Below, one piece after another: positions 3,623 to 25,188 of a DNA stretch of 64,000 bases. The notes under the pieces were generated by a model. The model had not been told where the DNA came from. It searched no databases and was given only the letters and a program-made list of their open reading frames with translations. The translations under genes were made by a program, and so were the position numbers. Each line of letters starts with the position of its first letter. The first letter of the stretch is position 1. The DNA lies in assembly GCF_053078305.1 (NCBI RefSeq), contig NZ_CP166879.1; one strand, written 5' to 3'.

Positions 3623-4840
3623 ATGCCCGAACCCGTAGCCGAACCCGCGCTAAACGGATTGCGCCTGAATTTGCGCATTGTCTCCATTGTCATGTTTAAC
3701 TTCGCCAGCTACCTCACCATCGGGTTGCCGCTCGCTGTATTACCGGGCTATGTCCATGATGTGATGGGCTTTAGCGCTTTCTGGGCAGGATTGGTTATCA
3801 GCCTGCAATATTTCGCCACCTTGCTGAGCCGTCCTCATGCCGGACGTTACGCCGATTTGCTGGGCCCCAAAAAGATTGTCGTCTTCGGTTTATGCGGCTG
3901 CTTTTTGAGCGGTCTGGGATATCTGACGGCAGGATTAACCGCCAGTCTGCCCGTCATCAGCCTGTTATTACTTTGCCTGGGACGCGTCATCCTTGGGATT
4001 GGGCAAAGTTTTGCCGGAACGGGATCGACCCTGTGGGGCGTTGGCGTGGTTGGCTCGCTGCATATCGGGCGGGTGATTTCGTGGAACGGCATTGTCACTT
4101 ATGGGGCGATGGCGATGGGTGCGCCGTTAGGTGTCGTGTTTTATCACTGGGGCGGCTTGCAGGCGTTAGCGTTAATCATTATGGGCGTGGCGCTGGTGGC
4201 CATTTTGTTGGCGATCCCGCGTCCGACGGTAAAAGCCAGTAAAGGCAAACCGCTGCCGTTTCGCGCGGTGCTTGGGCGTGTCTGGCTGTACGGTATGGCG
4301 CTGGCACTGGCTTCCGCCGGATTTGGCGTCATCGCCACCTTTATCACGCTGTTTTATGACGCTAAAGGTTGGGACGGTGCGGCTTTCGCGCTGACGCTGT
4401 TTAGCTGTGCGTTTGTCGGTACGCGTTTGTTATTCCCTAACGGCATTAACCGTATCGGCGGCTTAAACGTAGCGATGATTTGCTTTAGCGTTGAGATAAT
4501 CGGCCTGCTACTGGTTGGCGTGGCGACTATGCCGTGGATGGCGAAAATCGGCGTCTTACTAGCGGGGGCCGGGTTTTCGCTGGTGTTCCCGGCATTGGGT
4601 GTAGTGGCGGTAAAAGCGGTTCCGCAGCAAAATCAGGGGGCGGCGCTGGCAACTTACACCGTATTTATGGATTTATCGCTTGGCGTGACTGGACCACTGG
4701 CTGGGCTGGTGATGAGCTGGGCGGGCGTACCGGTGATTTATCTGGCGGCGGCGGGACTGGTCGCAATCGCGTTATTACTGACGTGGCGATTAAAAAAACG
4801 GCCTCCGGAACACGTCCCTGAGGCCGCCTCATCATCTTAA
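3623..4840 (+). CDS. yhhS: MFS transporter
   Basis: 12-TM-like hydrophobic protein. Trimmed to Met giving 405 aa; divergent from yhhT. Confidence 0.85.
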   Translation: MPEPVAEPALNGLRLNLRIVSIVMFNFASYLTIGLPLAVLPGYVHDVMGFSAFWAGLVISLQYFATLLSRPHAGRYADLLGPKKIVVFGLCGCFLSGLGYLTAGLTASLPVISLLLLCLGRVILGIGQSFAGTGSTLWGVGVVGSLHIGRVISWNGIVTYGAMAMGAPLGVVFYHWGGLQALALIIMGVALVAILLAIPRPTVKASKGKPLPFRAVLGRVWLYGMALALASAGFGVIATFITLFYDAKGWDGAAFALTLFSCAFVGTRLLFPNGINRIGGLNVAMICFSVEIIGLLLVGVATMPWMAKIGVLLAGAGFSLVFPALGVVAVKAVPQQNQGAALATYTVFMDLSLGVTGPLAGLVMSWAGVPVIYLAAAGLVAIALLLTWRLKKRPPEHVPEAASSS

Positions 4841-4843
4841 AAC

Positions 4844-5401
4844 TTACTGAATAACCAGCGTATTAATGATGTTTTCTGCGGTGGTCTGCGCTTTTTGCTG
4901 ATCGTCAGCTGGCAGAGTAATTTGCATGGTCAGCAGTTGATTACCCACGTTACCCAGAATAACGGAAGAGTACGCCGTCTGGCCTTTCGCGGAGATAATA
5001 CTGTCTAACTGCTGCATTTTGTGACCTTTCAGCTCAATGGCTTTATTGGTTACCACTTGCAGCTGCGGATCGCGGCTACGTTGCTGATCTTCCAGACGCT
5101 TCGCCAGCACCGCCAGATCTTCTTTCGGATCATCGCCCATGATGACGATGACTGCTTTCTGCCCGGTGGCGTCGGACCAGACATGCATGTTATTGGCCTG
5201 CGTTCCCAGCTTACCGCTCTGGTCGGTCATATCCGCTGGCAGCGAGAAACTTAACTTGCCATCAAGCAGGTTGACGGGATTCCCGGTAGCGTTACTTTCC
5301 GCGACCGAACCCTGCGCCGTAGCGTTAGTGTCTTTATCATCACAGGCCGCAAGCCCCATAACCAGCAGGCCAATTCCGACATATTTAACCAGATTGCGCA
5401 T
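4844..5401 (-). CDS. dcrB: Periplasmic lipoprotein DcrB
   Basis: [20 protein letters not shown] lipobox signal. Trimmed to 185 aa; synteny. Confidence 0.85.
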
Positions 5402-5473
5402 TGACTTCTTCCTTTCGATAAACGGCCATAACGGCTCATTCATCCATCTTATCACAACTCTGATAACGAACCT

Positions 5474-6139
5474 TTAACTCGCCTGCAAAGCGTTGATTTC
5501 GGATTTATCTGCCAGTCTTTTCAACAGCATATTGAGTAATACGCCATACATTGGTAGGAAGAAAACGATACTGATTAACACTTTGAAACAGTAATCGACC
5601 AGCGCGATTTCCATCCAGTGTTCAGCCATAAAGGCATCCGGGCTACGCCAGAAGGCAATGAAGAAAAAGGCCAGCGTGTCGCTGACGTTACCGAACAGTG
5701 TGGACGCTGTCGGTGCCAGCCACCAGCGGCGACTCTGACGCAGGCGGTTAAAAACGTGCACGTCGAGGATCTGTCCCAGCGCGTAGGCCATGAAACTGGC
5801 GGTGGCGATACGGGCGACAAACAGGTTGAAGTGGGCGAGTGCGCCGAATCCCTGCCAGGAACCCATATAGAATAGCGACGAGATGACGTAGGAGATCAGC
5901 AACGCCGGGATCATCACCGCAAAGATGATACGACGGGCCAGCGGTGCGCCAAAAATACGCACGGTCAGGTCGGTAGCAAGGAAAATAAACGGGAAGCTAA
6001 ACGCGCCCCAGGTGGTATGGAAACCAAAAATGGAGACGGGAAGCTGAACCAGATAGTTACTGGAGGTGATCACCAGCAGATGAAATAACGATAACCAGAA
6101 CAACGCCTTATAGCGTTGAGTTTGCGAGAAAACGTTCAT
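5474..6139 (-). CDS. yhhQ: Queuosine-precursor transporter family membrane protein
   Basis: 221-aa polytopic membrane protein in the conserved position between dcrB and tusA. Confidence 0.85.
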   Translation of the reverse strand: MNVFSQTQRYKALFWLSLFHLLVITSSNYLVQLPVSIFGFHTTWGAFSFPFIFLATDLTVRIFGAPLARRIIFAVMIPALLISYVISSLFYMGSWQGFGALAHFNLFVARIATASFMAYALGQILDVHVFNRLRQSRRWWLAPTASTLFGNVSDTLAFFFIAFWRSPDAFMAEHWMEIALVDYCFKVLISIVFFLPMYGVLLNMLLKRLADKSEINALQAS

Positions 6140-6706: not shown

Positions 6707-8905
6707 TTATCTCCTGCGCAACAATCTTAACGCATTCGCTGTCACCAGCACCGTCGCACCCGTATCTGCCAGCACCGCCAGCCATAGTCCGGTCATTCCT
6801 AACAGCGTGGTGACGAGGAAGATCCCTTTCAGCCCCAGCGCAATAGTGATGTTCTGGCGGATATTGGCGTGAGTGGCGCGTGCCAGTTCAATCATTTGCA
6901 CCAGACCGCGCAGGTGGTTATGGGTTAATGCTGCGTCGGCGGTTTCCAGCGCCACGTCTGTGCCGCTGCCCATTGCAATCCCGATGGCGGCAGCTTTCAT
7001 CGCTGGCGCGTCGTTAATACCATCACCGACCATCGCCAGCGGCGCATGTTGATTCAGCTCGGTTACCGCTTTGACTTTATCTTCCGGCAATAGGCCCGCT
7101 TTAAATTCCAGCCCCAGTTCCCCGGCGATTGCCGCCGCTGCGCGTGGATTATCGCCGGTGAGGATCACTCCTTTAACCCCCAGCGCGTTCAGTTCACTGA
7201 TGGCAGTTGCAGCATCGGCGCGCAGGGTATCCTGTAACGCAATGACACCAAGCACGTCATCGTTACGTACTACCAGCACTACCGTTTGCCCGGCGCTTTC
7301 CAGTTCGTTAATTAAACCAGCAAATGCATCAGCGGGATGTTTCCCGGCAGAGCAAATCAATACGCGCTCACCGTTAACCTGCGCTTCAATGCCAGACCCG
7401 ACCAGCGCCCGCTGTGATTCGGCGGCGGGAATGGCGAGTGCAGCAACCTGTGCTTCGCGCACGATGGCCTGCGCCAGTGGATGCGTCGCGCCTTGCTCGA
7501 CCGCCGCCGCCAGTGTCAGCAGTTCAGATTCACTAATACCCGTTGCCGGATGAATCGCGGTAACGCGCGGTTTACCGACGGTCAGCGTACCGGTTTTATC
7601 AAACGCCACCTGGGTAACACGACCTAGCTGCTCCAGCGCCGCACCGCCTTTAATTAACGCCCCACGACGTGCCGCTGCTGCCAGCCCGGAGGTAATCGCC
7701 GCGGGCGTGGAGATAACTAACGCACACGGGCAGCCAATCAGCAGCAGCGTCAGGCCTTTATAAATCCACTCTTGCCAGCTGGCGGCAAACAGCAGCGGCG
7801 GCACCAGCGTTACCAGCAGGGCGACGGCCATAATCGCTGGCGTATAAATACGGCTGAAACGGTCAATAAACCGCTCAATGGGAGCGCGACGCTCTTCGGC
7901 TTCTTCGATCAGTTTCAGAATCCGGTCAATGGCGCTGGCTCCCGGTTCGGACAATACTTCCAACGTCACCAGACGGTCTACGCTGGTGGCGCCTGCAGGA
8001 ACTTTATCGCCCGTCGCACGCTCCACCGGAATGGATTCGCCGGTCAGGGCGCTTTCATCAAAACTGGCAAAGGGTGAGAGCAGTTTACCGTCGGCAGGCA
8101 AACGCCCACCCGCCGCAACTTCAATCACATCGCCAGGGCGCAGGCTGTTAATTGCCACCTCTTCACGCTCACCGTTACGCAGGCGCGTGGCGTTTTCTGG
8201 TTTCAGCGCCATTAACGCGCTGACGCCCTGACGCGCGCGGCTGGCGGCCCAACCTTCTAGTCGTTCACCAATCAAAAACAGCAGCAACACCATCGCAGCT
8301 TCAGCCGTTGCGCCAATAAACAGCGCACCAATAGCGGCTACGCTCATTAACGTTTCAATGGCGAAGTAACTGCCTGATTTGATCAGCCGTAATGCCTGAC
8401 GAGCAATCGGGTACAGCCCAACCAGCGTGGTCGCGATAAACGCCAGTTGCCCGAACGGATGATTGAACTGCTCCAGACCCCAGCTGATTGCCATCATCAC
8501 GATTAGCGTAATCAGCGGCAGATTCTCTTTCAGGCGCGATTCTTGTTGTTCTTCGGCGGCCTGTTCATCGCGTAGGGAATAGCCCGCTTTTTGCACCGCA
8601 GATTCAACCTGGGCACGGATGTCATTGTCGGCATCCACCACCAGTTTTTCGGTGGCGAACAACACCTGCACCTGATTCACGCCTGCAAGCTGGCGCACGG
8701 CGTTTTCTACCTTGCGCGCACAGGCGGCGCAGTCCATGCCGCTGACTTTCCAGCTATAGCGGGTGCCGGAGACGTTTTCAGAGAGCGTTGGCGTGCTGGA
8801 ACATGCGCCGTCGCAGCAACAGTCGTTGGCGTTCTGTACCGTGGTTAGCGGTTTGAACGCAGCAAATTGAGGGGCTTTCTTGCCGTGATTGTCAGGAGTC
8901 GACAT
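6707..8905 (-). CDS. zntA: Zn/Cd/Pb-translocating P1B-type ATPase
   Basis: 732 aa with N-terminal GMDCAAC metal-binding motif, CPC transmembrane motif, DKTGTLT phosphorylation site and GDGINDAPA hinge. Confidence 0.97.
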   Translation of the reverse strand: MSTPDNHGKKAPQFAAFKPLTTVQNANDCCCDGACSSTPTLSENVSGTRYSWKVSGMDCAACARKVENAVRQLAGVNQVQVLFATEKLVVDADNDIRAQVESAVQKAGYSLRDEQAAEEQQESRLKENLPLITLIVMMAISWGLEQFNHPFGQLAFIATTLVGLYPIARQALRLIKSGSYFAIETLMSVAAIGALFIGATAEAAMVLLLFLIGERLEGWAASRARQGVSALMALKPENATRLRNGEREEVAINSLRPGDVIEVAAGGRLPADGKLLSPFASFDESALTGESIPVERATGDKVPAGATSVDRLVTLEVLSEPGASAIDRILKLIEEAEERRAPIERFIDRFSRIYTPAIMAVALLVTLVPPLLFAASWQEWIYKGLTLLLIGCPCALVISTPAAITSGLAAAARRGALIKGGAALEQLGRVTQVAFDKTGTLTVGKPRVTAIHPATGISESELLTLAAAVEQGATHPLAQAIVREAQVAALAIPAAESQRALVGSGIEAQVNGERVLICSAGKHPADAFAGLINELESAGQTVVLVVRNDDVLGVIALQDTLRADAATAISELNALGVKGVILTGDNPRAAAAIAGELGLEFKAGLLPEDKVKAVTELNQHAPLAMVGDGINDAPAMKAAAIGIAMGSGTDVALETADAALTHNHLRGLVQMIELARATHANIRQNITIALGLKGIFLVTTLLGMTGLWLAVLADTGATVLVTANALRLLRRR

Positions 8906-21933: not shown

Positions 21934-22647
21934 ATGGAAAAAGTCATGTTGTCCTTTGACAAAGTCAGCGCCCACTACGGCAAAATCCAGGCGCTGCATG
22001 AGGTGAGCCTGCATATCAATCAGGGCGAGATTGTCACGCTGATTGGCGCGAACGGGGCGGGGAAAACCACCTTGCTCGGCACGTTATGCGGCGATCCGCG
22101 CGCCACCAGCGGGCGAATTGTGTTTGATGATAAAGACATTACCGACTGGCAGACGGCGAAAATCATGCGCGAAGCGGTAGCGATTGTCCCGGAAGGGCGT
22201 CGCGTCTTCTCGCGGATGACGGTGGAAGAGAACCTGGCGATGGGCGGCTTTTTTGCCGAACGTGATCAGTTTCAGGAGCGCATAAAGTGGGTGTATGAGC
22301 TGTTTCCACGTCTTCATGAGCGTCGTGTTCAGCGGGCGGGCACCATGTCCGGCGGTGAACAGCAGATGCTGGCGATTGGTCGCGCGCTGATGAGCAACCC
22401 GCGTTTGTTGTTGCTTGATGAGCCATCGCTCGGTCTTGCGCCGATTATCATCCAGCAAATTTTCGACACCATCGAGCAGCTGCGCGAGCAGGGGATGACT
22501 ATCTTCCTCGTCGAGCAGAACGCCAACCAGGCGCTGAAGCTGGCGGATCGCGGCTACGTGCTGGAAAACGGCCATGTTGTGCTCTCCGATACCGGCGATG
22601 CGCTGCTGGCGAACGAAGCAGTGAGAAGTGCGTATTTAGGCGGGTAA
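21934..22647 (+). CDS. livF: Branched-chain amino acid ABC ATPase
   Basis: Trimmed to MEKVMLSFDKV giving 237 aa. Walker A GANGAGKTT, signature MSGGEQQM. Confidence 0.93.
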   Translation: MEKVMLSFDKVSAHYGKIQALHEVSLHINQGEIVTLIGANGAGKTTLLGTLCGDPRATSGRIVFDDKDITDWQTAKIMREAVAIVPEGRRVFSRMTVEENLAMGGFFAERDQFQERIKWVYELFPRLHERRVQRAGTMSGGEQQMLAIGRALMSNPRLLLLDEPSLGLAPIIIQQIFDTIEQLREQGMTIFLVEQNANQALKLADRGYVLENGHVVLSDTGDALLANEAVRSAYLGG

Positions 22648-22765
22648 ATTATCGAATACCCGGCGGCCACGTTCTGCCGGGCTCTTCGTCCGTATACAGA
22701 CTTGTTTCAACTGACCGGGAGGATTAAAACCAGACCACTTATTTGCCACGGAAAGGTTCCCTCCC

Positions 22766-23512
22766 ATGCATTATGCCGTTGTTGTCATGCTTGAACTGCT
22801 TTGCTGTATTCACGCTTACCGTACCGGACAAGAGCGGTACTGGATTTTTATCATTTTCTGTTTTCCGGTGATTGGCTGCGTGGCGTATTTCGTCATAGTG
22901 ATGCTGCCTGAAACGGGCGCTGACCGTCACGGGCATACTTTGCTGATGCGCCTGCAGAACAAACTCAACCCTGAGCGCCACCTGCGCAAATTAACCGAAG
23001 AACTGGCGATTGCCGAGACGAATCAAAACCATTATGCGTTGGCTAATGAACTGGCGCGTCTGGGGCGTTATCACGAAGCTGTTCCCCATTATCAGCAGGC
23101 GTTAAGCGGGATATTCGCCCATGAAGCGGCAATGATGCTAAGCCTGGCGCAGGCACAGTTTGCTATTCAGGAGTTCGCCGCCTGTCAGCAGACGCTGGAA
23201 GATGTGATGCGTTATAACCCTGATTTTCAGTCGGCAGACGGGCATTTGTTATTTGCCAGAACGTTAGCCGCACAAGAAAAATACGCTGATGCGGAAAGCG
23301 AGTTTGAAGTATTGATTTCTTATTACCCCGGCCCGCAGGCGCGTATTTACTATGCGGAAATGTTGGCGAAAATGAGTCGGTTACGTGAAGCCAACGAGCA
23401 GTATGTTGCTGTAGTTGATACGGCTAAACGCTCAAGACCTCATTATAGAAAACACCACCGGGAATGGATTAAGACCGCCAATGAACGGCTGAAGCAGAGT
23501 GTGGTGCAATGA
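22766..23512 (+). CDS. Hypothetical membrane-anchored protein: PLD-nuclease N-terminal-like two-helix anchor plus a TPR-like helical-repeat domain; accessory relative to K-12
   Basis: 248-aa ORF with its own RBS (GGAAAGG) and a downstream hairpin terminator. The N-terminus (CCIHAYRTGQERYWIFIIFCFPVIGCVAYFVIVMLPE) looks like a PLDc_N-type small membrane domain; the remainder is helical and alanine/leucine-rich. Confidence 0.6.
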   Translation: MHYAVVVMLELLCCIHAYRTGQERYWIFIIFCFPVIGCVAYFVIVMLPETGADRHGHTLLMRLQNKLNPERHLRKLTEELAIAETNQNHYALANELARLGRYHEAVPHYQQALSGIFAHEAAMMLSLAQAQFAIQEFAACQQTLEDVMRYNPDFQSADGHLLFARTLAAQEKYADAESEFEVLISYYPGPQARIYYAEMLAKMSRLREANEQYVAVVDTAKRSRPHYRKHHREWIKTANERLKQSVVQ

Positions 23513-23582
23513 AAATCTTCTTTGCCGTTAGACCAGTGTCGCGGCAATCTTTTGTTAAAATTGAAAAATGTAGCTCTCATCG

Positions 23583-23620
23583 GGCAGCAAAACTGGACGC
23601 AGAATTTGCTGCCATTTTTG
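23583..23620 (+). terminator. Hairpin terminator after the 22766-23512 gene
   Basis: GGCAGCAAA, loop, TTTGCTGCC, then ATTTTTG. Confidence 0.6.
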
Positions 23621-23871
23621 CTCTTCATGGTAAGGAGTTCTGGCGATTAGCTGGCCGTTAATCGCCTCTTTTCAGTGCATTCTCGGGATATCCGTGCCCC
23701 ATCTCCCATTTTCCCTCACCCGTACCGTCACCGCCTTGTCATCTTTCTGACACCTTACTATCTTACAAATGTAACAAAAAAGTTATTTTTCTGTAATTCG
23801 AGCATGTCATGTTACCCCGCGAGCATAAAACGCGTGAATTCGCGCATTCGGTACAACAAGAGAGATAAACG

Positions 23872-25188
23872 ATGAAACCGTTACATTATACAGCTTCAGC
23901 ACTGGCGCTCGGACTGGCGTTAATGGGGAATGCACAGGCAGTGACGACCATTCCGTTCTGGCATTCTATGGAAGGGGAACTGGGTAAAGAGGTGGATTCT
24001 CTGGCCCAACGTTTTAACGCCGAAAACCCGGATTACAAAATTGTACCGACCTATAAAGGCAACTACGAACAGAATTTAAGCGCGGGGATTGCCGCATTTC
24101 GTACCGGCAATGCTCCGGCTATTTTGCAGGTTTATGAAGTTGGCACCGCCACCATGATGGCGTCGAAAGCCATTAAACCGGTATATGACGTGTTTAAAGA
24201 GGCGGGGATTCAATTCGATGAGTCGCAGTTTGTGCCGACGGTTTCAGGTTACTATTCCGACAGCAAAACCGGCCACTTACTCTCCCAGCCGTTCAACAGC
24301 TCGACTCCCGTTCTCTATTACAACAAAGACGCCTTCAAGAAAGCGGGGTTAGACCCGGAACAACCGCCGAAAACCTGGCAGGATCTGGCGGACTATGCCG
24401 CAAAACTAAAAGCCTCCGGCATGAAGTGCGGCTACGCCAGCGGCTGGCAGGGCTGGATCCAACTGGAAAACTTTAGCGCCTGGAACGGTCTGCCGTTTGC
24501 CAGCAAAAACAACGGCTTTGACGGCACGGATGCGGTGCTGGAGTTCAACAAGCCGGAGCAGGTGAAACACATCGCCATGCTCGAAGAGATGAACAAGAAG
24601 GGCGATTTCAGCTACGTCGGGCGTAAGGATGAATCCACCGAGAAGTTCTATAACGGTGATTGCGCGATGACCACCGCCTCTTCCGGTTCTCTCGCTAATA
24701 TTCGTGAGTACGCCAAATTTAACTATGGCGTAGGCATGATGCCTTACGACGCCGATGCGAAAGATGCACCGCAAAACGCCATTATCGGCGGGGCCAGCCT
24801 GTGGGTGATGCAGGGCAAAGATAAAGAAACGTATACCGGCGTGGCGAAGTTCCTCGACTTCCTCGCTAAGCCAGAAAATGCTGCCGAGTGGCATCAGAAA
24901 ACTGGTTATCTGCCAATCACCAAAGCGGCGTATGACTTGACTCGTGAGCAGGGCTTTTATGAGAAAAACCCAGGGGCGGATACCGCGACGCGTCAGATGC
25001 TGAATAAGCCGCCGTTGCCGTTCACCAAAGGGCTGCGTCTGGGCAACATGCCGCAGATCCGCGTGATTGTGGATGAAGAGCTCGAGAGCGTGTGGACCGG
25101 CAAGAAGACGCCACAGCAGGCGCTGGATACCGCCGTTGAGCGTGGGAATCAGTTGCTGCGCCGTTTTGAGAAATCTACGAAGTCTTAA
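23872..25188 (+). CDS. ugpB: sn-Glycerol-3-phosphate periplasmic binding protein
   Basis: 438 aa with signal peptide. The upstream region carries pho-box-like TGTCAT repeats (CTTGTCATCTTTCTGACACC). Confidence 0.96.

Follow-up and report, generated by a model that had tools for sequence, protein, structure and literature searches.

A probably ancestral gene between livF and ugpB, lost from most Escherichia coli, encodes a putative membrane-anchored tetratricopeptide repeat protein

The window analyzed here, a 64,000-nucleotide stretch of contig NZ_CP166879.1 (RefSeq assembly GCF_053078305.1), is Escherichia coli DNA whose positions 22400-24100 match strain PapRG-06-5 at 100% identity. Between livF and ugpB the window carries a gene for a 248-amino-acid protein that combines an N-terminal hairpin of the PLDc_N type with tetratricopeptide repeats (TPRs), and that is referred to below as the TPR gene. 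With moderate confidence, we read it as an ancestral functional gene that most E. coli have lost, and whose product would be a TPR adaptor anchored in the inner membrane by its PLDc_N hairpin. The initial annotation had described a single-gene insertion into a K-12-like spacer. The direction of the event is corrected here: the K-12 form appears to be derived, and its stretch of repetitive extragenic palindromic (REP) elements would mark the place of the lost gene. The gene, the two parts of its product, and the segments that define the site are as follows.

22766..23512, plus strand: TPR gene (PLDc_N and TPR membrane protein, 248 amino acids), ATG start, stop codon included
22766..22915, plus strand: predicted PLDc_N-type membrane hairpin, residues 1-50, with hydrophobic helices 2-19 and 25-51
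23021..23506, plus strand: predicted region of four TPR-like helix pairs, a capping helix and a basic C-terminal helix, residues 86-247
22648..23688, no strand assigned: variable segment of 1,041 bp, not homologous to positions 1-215 of the K-12 spacer
23689..23871, plus strand: ugpB promoter region, outside the variable segment, common to K-12 and all E. coli

The livF stop codon ends at 22647 and ugpB starts at 23872, which leaves a spacer of 1,224 bp in the window, versus 398 bp in K-12 strain MG1655 and 395 bp in strain E16, another representative of the gene-less form. The lengths of roughly 1.2 and 0.4 kb given in the initial annotation were thus accurate, as was the placement of a 248-residue open reading frame (ORF) between the two genes. 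The MG1655 spacer contains neither an ORF nor an annotated gene, in agreement with the proposed absence from K-12. When the gene-less form is aligned with the window, homology ends exactly at the livF stop codon and restarts at 23689, and window positions 23689-23871 correspond to K-12 spacer positions 216-398. Positions 1-215 of the K-12 spacer are unrelated sequence, comprising a small hairpin and two REP elements in opposite orientations (GCCTGATGCG...TTATCAGGCCTAC and GTAGGCCTGATAAGGCG...CATCCGGC). The difference between the gene-bearing and K-12 forms is therefore a replacement and not a pure addition. One ORF had been said to account for the difference in length, but 176 bp of 3' sequence with a 50-residue ORF also belong to the variable segment.

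The order livF-TPR gene-ugpB is found in eight species of three genera. Within Escherichia, the encoded protein shares 94% amino acid identity with that of E. fergusonii, 94-95% with those of Escherichia sp. E1V33, Escherichia sp. MOD1-EC7003 and E. whittamii, and 92% with that of E. albertii, in which a frameshift occurs near residue 185. The same order occurs outside Escherichia in Pseudocitrobacter (69% identity), Citrobacter sp. NCU1 (68%) and C. freundii (75%). In comparison with C. freundii, the TPR gene has a nonsynonymous divergence (dN) of 0.16 and a saturated synonymous divergence (dS), whereas livF has a dN of 0.034 and a dS of 0.68. The gene would therefore have occupied this site for no less time than its neighbors. 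In E. albertii, the second REP element and the unique 54 bp that are seen in K-12 come directly after the gene and the initial ~65 bp of its 3' flank. Because this species joins the gene to K-12-type REP sequence, the K-12 state would be the derived one. The most parsimonious reading is that the gene was ancestral between livF and ugpB, and that the K-12 form arose by deletion or replacement beside REP elements.

A recent horizontal insertion of a single gene into a K-12-like spacer is very improbable on these data, and has largely been refuted already. This explanation would fit the presence of the gene in just 659 of 5,426 complete E. coli genomes, and it would also fit a site that is prone to insertions and deletions, as four extra genes in C. 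freundii, another gene in MOD1-EC7003, and extra sequence in E. albertii and E. whittamii attest. Against it, the gene is syntenic across three genera, and its divergence equals or surpasses that of its flanks. The composition of the gene is native (G+C 0.51-0.53), a search of the edges of the variable segment found neither direct nor inverted repeats, and the ORFs of the segment include no recombinase. Thus, the hallmarks of a mobile insertion (target-site duplication or terminal repeats, a recombinase, and atypical composition) are absent, and no integrase or insertion sequence (IS) flanks the gene. Moreover, the K-12 spacer is not an empty site, because it holds 215 bp of unrelated REP-containing sequence, part of which adjoins the gene in E. 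albertii. Phage records lack the family. The plasmid records that contain it are Ralstonia and Methylobacterium megaplasmids and one Comamonas plasmid, the latter with a partial copy, so that none was found on a phage or a conventional plasmid.

The gene-bearing form represents ~12% of the complete E. coli genomes, and the remaining 88% have the short form. Carriers include O157:H7, O145:H28 and the O7:K1 strain CE10, and in these genomes RefSeq labels the gene as 'tetratricopeptide repeat protein' or 'hypothetical protein'. The TPR gene of E. coli Br_112_kylling (NZ_CP182371.1) is split into two pseudogene pieces by a truncated fragment of an IS4-like ISVsa5 transposase.

The livF-ugpB spacer is a small cargo hotspot. 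In E. albertii NBRC 107761 (extracted locus 4462-5746) and in E. whittamii, ~445 extra bp separate livF from the TPR gene. In C. freundii CP055551.1 (extracted locus 6850-8324), four extra genes lie between the TPR gene and ugpB: a 93-residue ORF with a signal-peptide-like start, a 135-residue ORF, and a pair that encodes Phd (73 amino acids) and Fic/Doc (122 amino acids). A further variant of the site is found in Escherichia sp. MOD1-EC7003, in which another gene follows the TPR gene (locus position 5744 onward), with a product that starts MYTQQVEQSFKLLRENGIFITQG....

All ten E. coli alleles that were translated encode 248-249 amino acids without stops, and the same is true of the copies in E. 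fergusonii, E. whittamii, Escherichia sp. E1V33 and MOD1-EC7003. Decay among close relatives had been raised as a possible objection to a functional gene; these copies are intact, and the one in E. albertii is frameshifted. Pairwise dN/dS values of the gene within Escherichia range from 0.07 to 0.22. As judged from the intact alleles, these substitution patterns, and more than 800 distant full-length homologues at E<=1e-10, the ORF is no chance frame; the gene is real and is kept by purifying selection. The E. coli alleles look mosaic across 22766-23440, with differences that concentrate near residues 55-100, where two haplotypes recur (HTLLMRLQNKLNPE...ALANELARLGRY versus RTFLMRLQDKINPE...QLANELARLERY). 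The clustering of differences in two recurring haplotypes suggests recombination among old E. coli alleles.

The N-terminal part of the protein is characterized by the motif HAYRTGQERYWIFIIFCFPVIGCVAYF (HAYR...W...FPVIGCVAYF), which occupies residues 16-42. The PLDc_N-like, two-helix character that had been ascribed to this region is borne out by a Pfam match to PLDc_N (PF13396) at residues 26-44, with an i-Evalue of 6.9e-4 that is weak as a single-sequence match. Of 72 diverse homologues, 24 match PLDc_N at E<=1e-3, a number that rises to 53 at E<=0.1; the lowest value is 8.7e-7, and the predicted membership is solid at the level of the family. Both N-terminal helices have a mean Kyte-Doolittle hydropathy of 2.2 across the family. 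Residues H16, W26, P34, G37, Y41 and P48 are each conserved in at least 67 of the 72 sequences (67-71 for W26, P34, G37 and Y41). A phospholipase D catalytic domain (HKD, Pfam PLDc) is not matched by Pfam anywhere in the 248 residues.

The remainder of the protein had been described as TPR-like with a basic tail, and profiles and structure prediction agree with this description. Pfam matches TPR_19 at 2.5e-6 and TPR_2 and TPR_1 at ~1e-4, and TPR_19 also matches 62 of the 72 homologues at E<=1e-3. Near-invariant residues of the soluble part are P69, N88, A93, A105, G115, A128, P152, H160-L161, A164, A176, G189, E191, L200, A209, W234 and A238. An AlphaFold2 model built from the family alignment is entirely helical, with 15 helices, a predicted local distance difference test score (pLDDT) of 95.3 and a predicted template modeling score (pTM) of 0.82. 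Helices 2-19 and 25-51 (the latter broken at P34) come first, then two linker helices and, at residues 86-222, four TPR-like pairs; C-terminal helices extend from there up to residue 247. The tandem 34-residue helix-turn-helix repeats that define the TPR superfamily are thus recognized both by profiles and in the predicted fold.

Homologues of the protein are numerous and of uniform length, ~245 amino acids. Genome contigs were searched with a 12-sequence family alignment, and an exhaustive homologue search yielded 1,853 cluster representatives at E<=1e-3, of which 840 pass E<=1e-10 and 129 pass E<=1e-30. Among the top 150 homologues, nearly every one is 240-260 amino acids long and aligns from end to end. 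The family is found in Alpha-, Beta- and Gammaproteobacteria and beyond. A Foldseek search of AFDB50 gave full-length matches from Xenorhabdus, Xanthomonas, Gilliamella, Methylomagnum, Maricaulis, Desulfonema and others, which are named either 'Tetratricopeptide repeat protein' or 'Cardiolipin synthase N-terminal domain-containing protein'. An NCBIfam scan gave generic TPR matches only, all under the curated cut-offs; PADLOC protein models gave no family at E<=1, a PHROGs scan gave no usable match, and a literature search found no paper on the gene or on the combination of PLDc_N with TPRs. By its profile matches, the protein is a member of the TPR superfamily with a PLDc_N module, and belongs to an uncharacterized family that is already present in databases under generic names.

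These features suggest how the protein might work. The common ancestor of Escherichia and Citrobacter would already have carried the gene at the livF-ugpB site. Most E. coli lineages, including K-12, would have lost it since, and REP elements now fill the site. The two hydrophobic helices of the PLDc_N-type hairpin would insert into the inner membrane and anchor this small protein there. At the membrane, the hairpin would thereby tether a rigid TPR domain that has four repeats and a basic C-terminal helix. The groove of the TPR domain could then bind a partner protein whose gene lies elsewhere in the genome, and the TPR protein might serve as an adaptor that keeps this partner at the membrane. 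Because more positive charge lies past helix 2 and the C-terminal helix is basic, we lean toward a TPR domain that faces the cytoplasm.

Several observations weigh against this proposal. In E. coli, 88% of genomes do without the gene, an ISVsa5 fragment disrupts it in one strain, and it is frameshifted in the E. albertii type strain, although that genome is a draft assembly in which a sequencing error is possible. A literature search gave no expression or experimental evidence for the gene. Because TPR folds are generic, the adaptor role is a proposal at the level of the class. The conserved part of PLDc_N in ClsA has itself been termed 'a motif of unknown function' in a review (PMC9385802). 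Finally, the distribution of charge is ambiguous: the loop between the helices has a mean of 2.2 Lys/Arg, and the 25 residues past helix 2 have 5.1 Lys/Arg together with 3.0 Asp/Glu.

The loss of the gene in 88% of genomes, the E. albertii frameshift, the IS fragment, and the lack of expression data in the literature could also mean that the ORF is a decaying remnant that is functionless in E. coli today. This is highly implausible: dN/dS is 0.07-0.22, every sampled E. coli allele is full length although as many as 10.8% of the nucleotide columns vary, and the conserved residues of the family are retained.

Because the charge counts are not decisive for orientation, the TPR domain could instead be periplasmic. 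The same protein would then be reversed, with the hairpin loop in the cytoplasm and an envelope role like that of YfgM or CpoB/YbgF. A search of the literature on ClsA topology, by which orientation might have been fixed by homology, found no stated orientation. The reversed arrangement is a serious but doubtful alternative. Basic residues are more numerous past helix 2 than in the loop, and the C-terminal tail is strongly basic, neither of which favors export of the TPR domain. In addition, the YbgF score is far under its 90.1-bit cut-off, and Pfam TPR_21 (PF09976), which we take to be the YfgM-type domain, is matched in just 2 of the 72 family members.

The inner-membrane adaptor that we favor could also be part of something broader. 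PLDc_N-TPR proteins might constitute an unrecognized, widespread class of membrane adaptors, in which the hairpin senses anionic lipid or pairs within the membrane with other PLDc_N proteins, ClsA for example, and the TPR domain recruits a cytoplasmic partner. This extension is speculative and, on balance, unlikely. If true, the class would have been overlooked by model-organism genetics, the K-12 copy being deleted.

The genomic context of the family was analyzed in 83 loci from Enterobacterales, Pseudomonas, Lysobacterales, Alphaproteobacteria and several metagenome-assembled genomes, for which all stop-to-stop ORFs were clustered. No neighboring gene is conserved across these loci: the best neighbor cluster is found in at most 12 of the 83 and is restricted by taxon. 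The sole cluster that rivals the gene in size is an antisense shadow ORF of the gene itself. As annotated with Pfam, the neighborhood in Pseudomonas alcaligenes is unrelated to that in Exilibacterium. The TPR gene is a stand-alone gene, and the initial annotation was right that it has no partner nearby.

The sequence that follows the gene in the variable segment contains one further ORF.

23509..23661, plus strand: ORF of 50 amino acids, ATG overlapping the TGA of the TPR gene; probably the 3' half of a phd/yefM-type antitoxin gene, left as a relic

This ORF is annotated as a hypothetical protein in some RefSeq genomes (WP_001302354.1). Its residues 15-50 share 39% identity over 36 amino acids (pairwise E 9e-9) with the C-terminal half of the C. 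freundii Phd protein, which, together with the Fic/Doc gene, sits at the same site between the TPR gene and ugpB. Phd/YefM antitoxins have an N-terminal PhdYeFM_antitox domain and an adjacent toxin gene; the 50-residue ORF has neither, Pfam finds no match in it, and a tblastn search for a Fic/Doc remnant found none. Because the resemblance to Phd is confined to the C-terminal 36 residues, the ORF is probably what remains of a phd-doc toxin-antitoxin module.

The Phd and Fic/Doc pair of C. freundii and the Phd-like ORF that overlaps the stop codon in E. coli could be taken to mean that the TPR gene is functionally tied to toxin-antitoxin or defense cargo at the hotspot. Of all the explanations considered, this is the least probable. 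There is no PADLOC match and no usable PHROG match, and a short hairpin is all that follows the gene in E. fergusonii, E. whittamii and Escherichia sp. E1V33, which lack a toxin-antitoxin relic there. Neither does the family have a toxin-antitoxin neighbor in Pseudomonas, Lysobacterales or Alphaproteobacteria.

The 176-bp 3' segment (23513-23688) is unusually uniform in E. coli. It is at least 99% identical in 636 of 640 carriers, versus 335 of 582 and 527 of 659 for two coding pieces of the same length. In seven diverse alleles, 1.7% of its columns are variable, as compared with 10.8% for the gene, 4.9% for the ugpB promoter and 5.3-6.6% for livF and ugpB. There are zero differences between the segment in the window and that of three alleles whose gene departs by 3-5% from that of the window. 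Between genera it is not especially conserved, with ~70% identity to Pseudocitrobacter. An Rfam search of 22500-24000 gave no match. The small RNA Esr41 of enterohemorrhagic E. coli was considered as an identity for the segment and rejected, as Esr41 is located in O-island 43 (SpLE1) between z1181 and z1182. The uniformity could result from selection on an RNA or peptide, or from a recombinational sweep. Perhaps the segment encodes a functional small RNA, or an orphan antitoxin-tail peptide, that is kept by selection in E. coli.

Signals that might direct expression of the TPR gene are found on both sides of it.

22653..22688, plus strand: hairpin directly past the livF stop codon, lacking a U run (-16.8 kcal/mol, z -1.7)
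22750..22756, plus strand: Shine-Dalgarno-like GGAAAGG, 9 nt 5' of the ATG, read from the sequence
23578..23629, plus strand: extended hairpin within the 3' segment, earlier called the terminator (-17.6 kcal/mol, z -2.8)
23642..23676, plus strand: terminator-like hairpin of 10 pairs (23642-23666) followed by UCUUUUC, which closes the variable segment

E. albertii has GGAGAGG at the position equivalent to GGAAAGG in the window. The gene had been credited with its own ribosome binding site and terminator. The former is consistent with the GGAAAGG sequence, but the proposed end at 23620 falls inside the 23578-23629 hairpin, and the clearest terminator-like hairpin is that at 23642-23666. A terminator scan did not call the hairpin past livF, and a promoter scan upstream of the TPR gene found no good promoter. 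Because this hairpin lacks a U run and no good promoter lies upstream, the livKHMGF transcript may read through into the TPR gene. At the position of the 22653-22688 hairpin, K-12 has a hairpin plus REP elements instead.

The analysis flags a large, uniform and uncharacterized family, with more than 800 cluster representatives at E<=1e-10. Natural pairs of strains that have or lack the gene exist within E. coli, such as O157:H7 versus K-12, so a screen for function would be cheap. TPRs are also a second non-catalytic domain that joins PLDc_N, a membrane module of which little is understood. There is no sign of a system of a new type, so the practical value of these findings is modest.

Among known proteins, the N terminus most resembles that of ClsA-type cardiolipin synthases, which has two hydrophobic helices, the pattern W...P..G...Y in the second, and basic residues after each (as described in PMC9385802). 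In ClsA the hairpin precedes a PLD/HKD catalytic domain, whereas here it is followed by TPRs. The cardiolipin synthase model TIGR04265 scores 11.9 bits, versus a 290-bit cut-off, and matches residues 22-54 only. From these comparisons, the protein is not an enzyme of the PLD/cardiolipin synthase family. PLDc_N is a portable membrane module that also combines with non-catalytic domains such as SHOCT (PMC3581485). Stand-alone PLDc_N and PLDc_N-SHOCT proteins are at most 173 amino acids long and lack TPRs, unlike the 248-residue protein.

With regard to TPR proteins, the CpoB/YbgF model (TIGR02795) scores 31.6 bits versus its 90.1-bit cut-off, so the protein does not belong to that family. LapB (YciM) is an inner-membrane-anchored cytoplasmic TPR adaptor of E. 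coli, in which an N-terminal anchor is followed by TPRs. No LapB model is among the NCBIfam matches at E<=1, and the protein is not a LapB, although an AFDB homologue from Saezia sanguinis bears the automatic name 'Lipopolysaccharide assembly protein B'. LapB has nine repeats, a single-helix anchor and a rubredoxin-type C-terminal domain, whereas the protein described here has four repeats and a two-helix PLDc_N anchor, and ends at residue 248 in a basic helix without a rubredoxin-type domain. Nonetheless, the two share the overall plan of a membrane anchor joined to a TPR adaptor, and LapB is the known system whose way of working would be closest.
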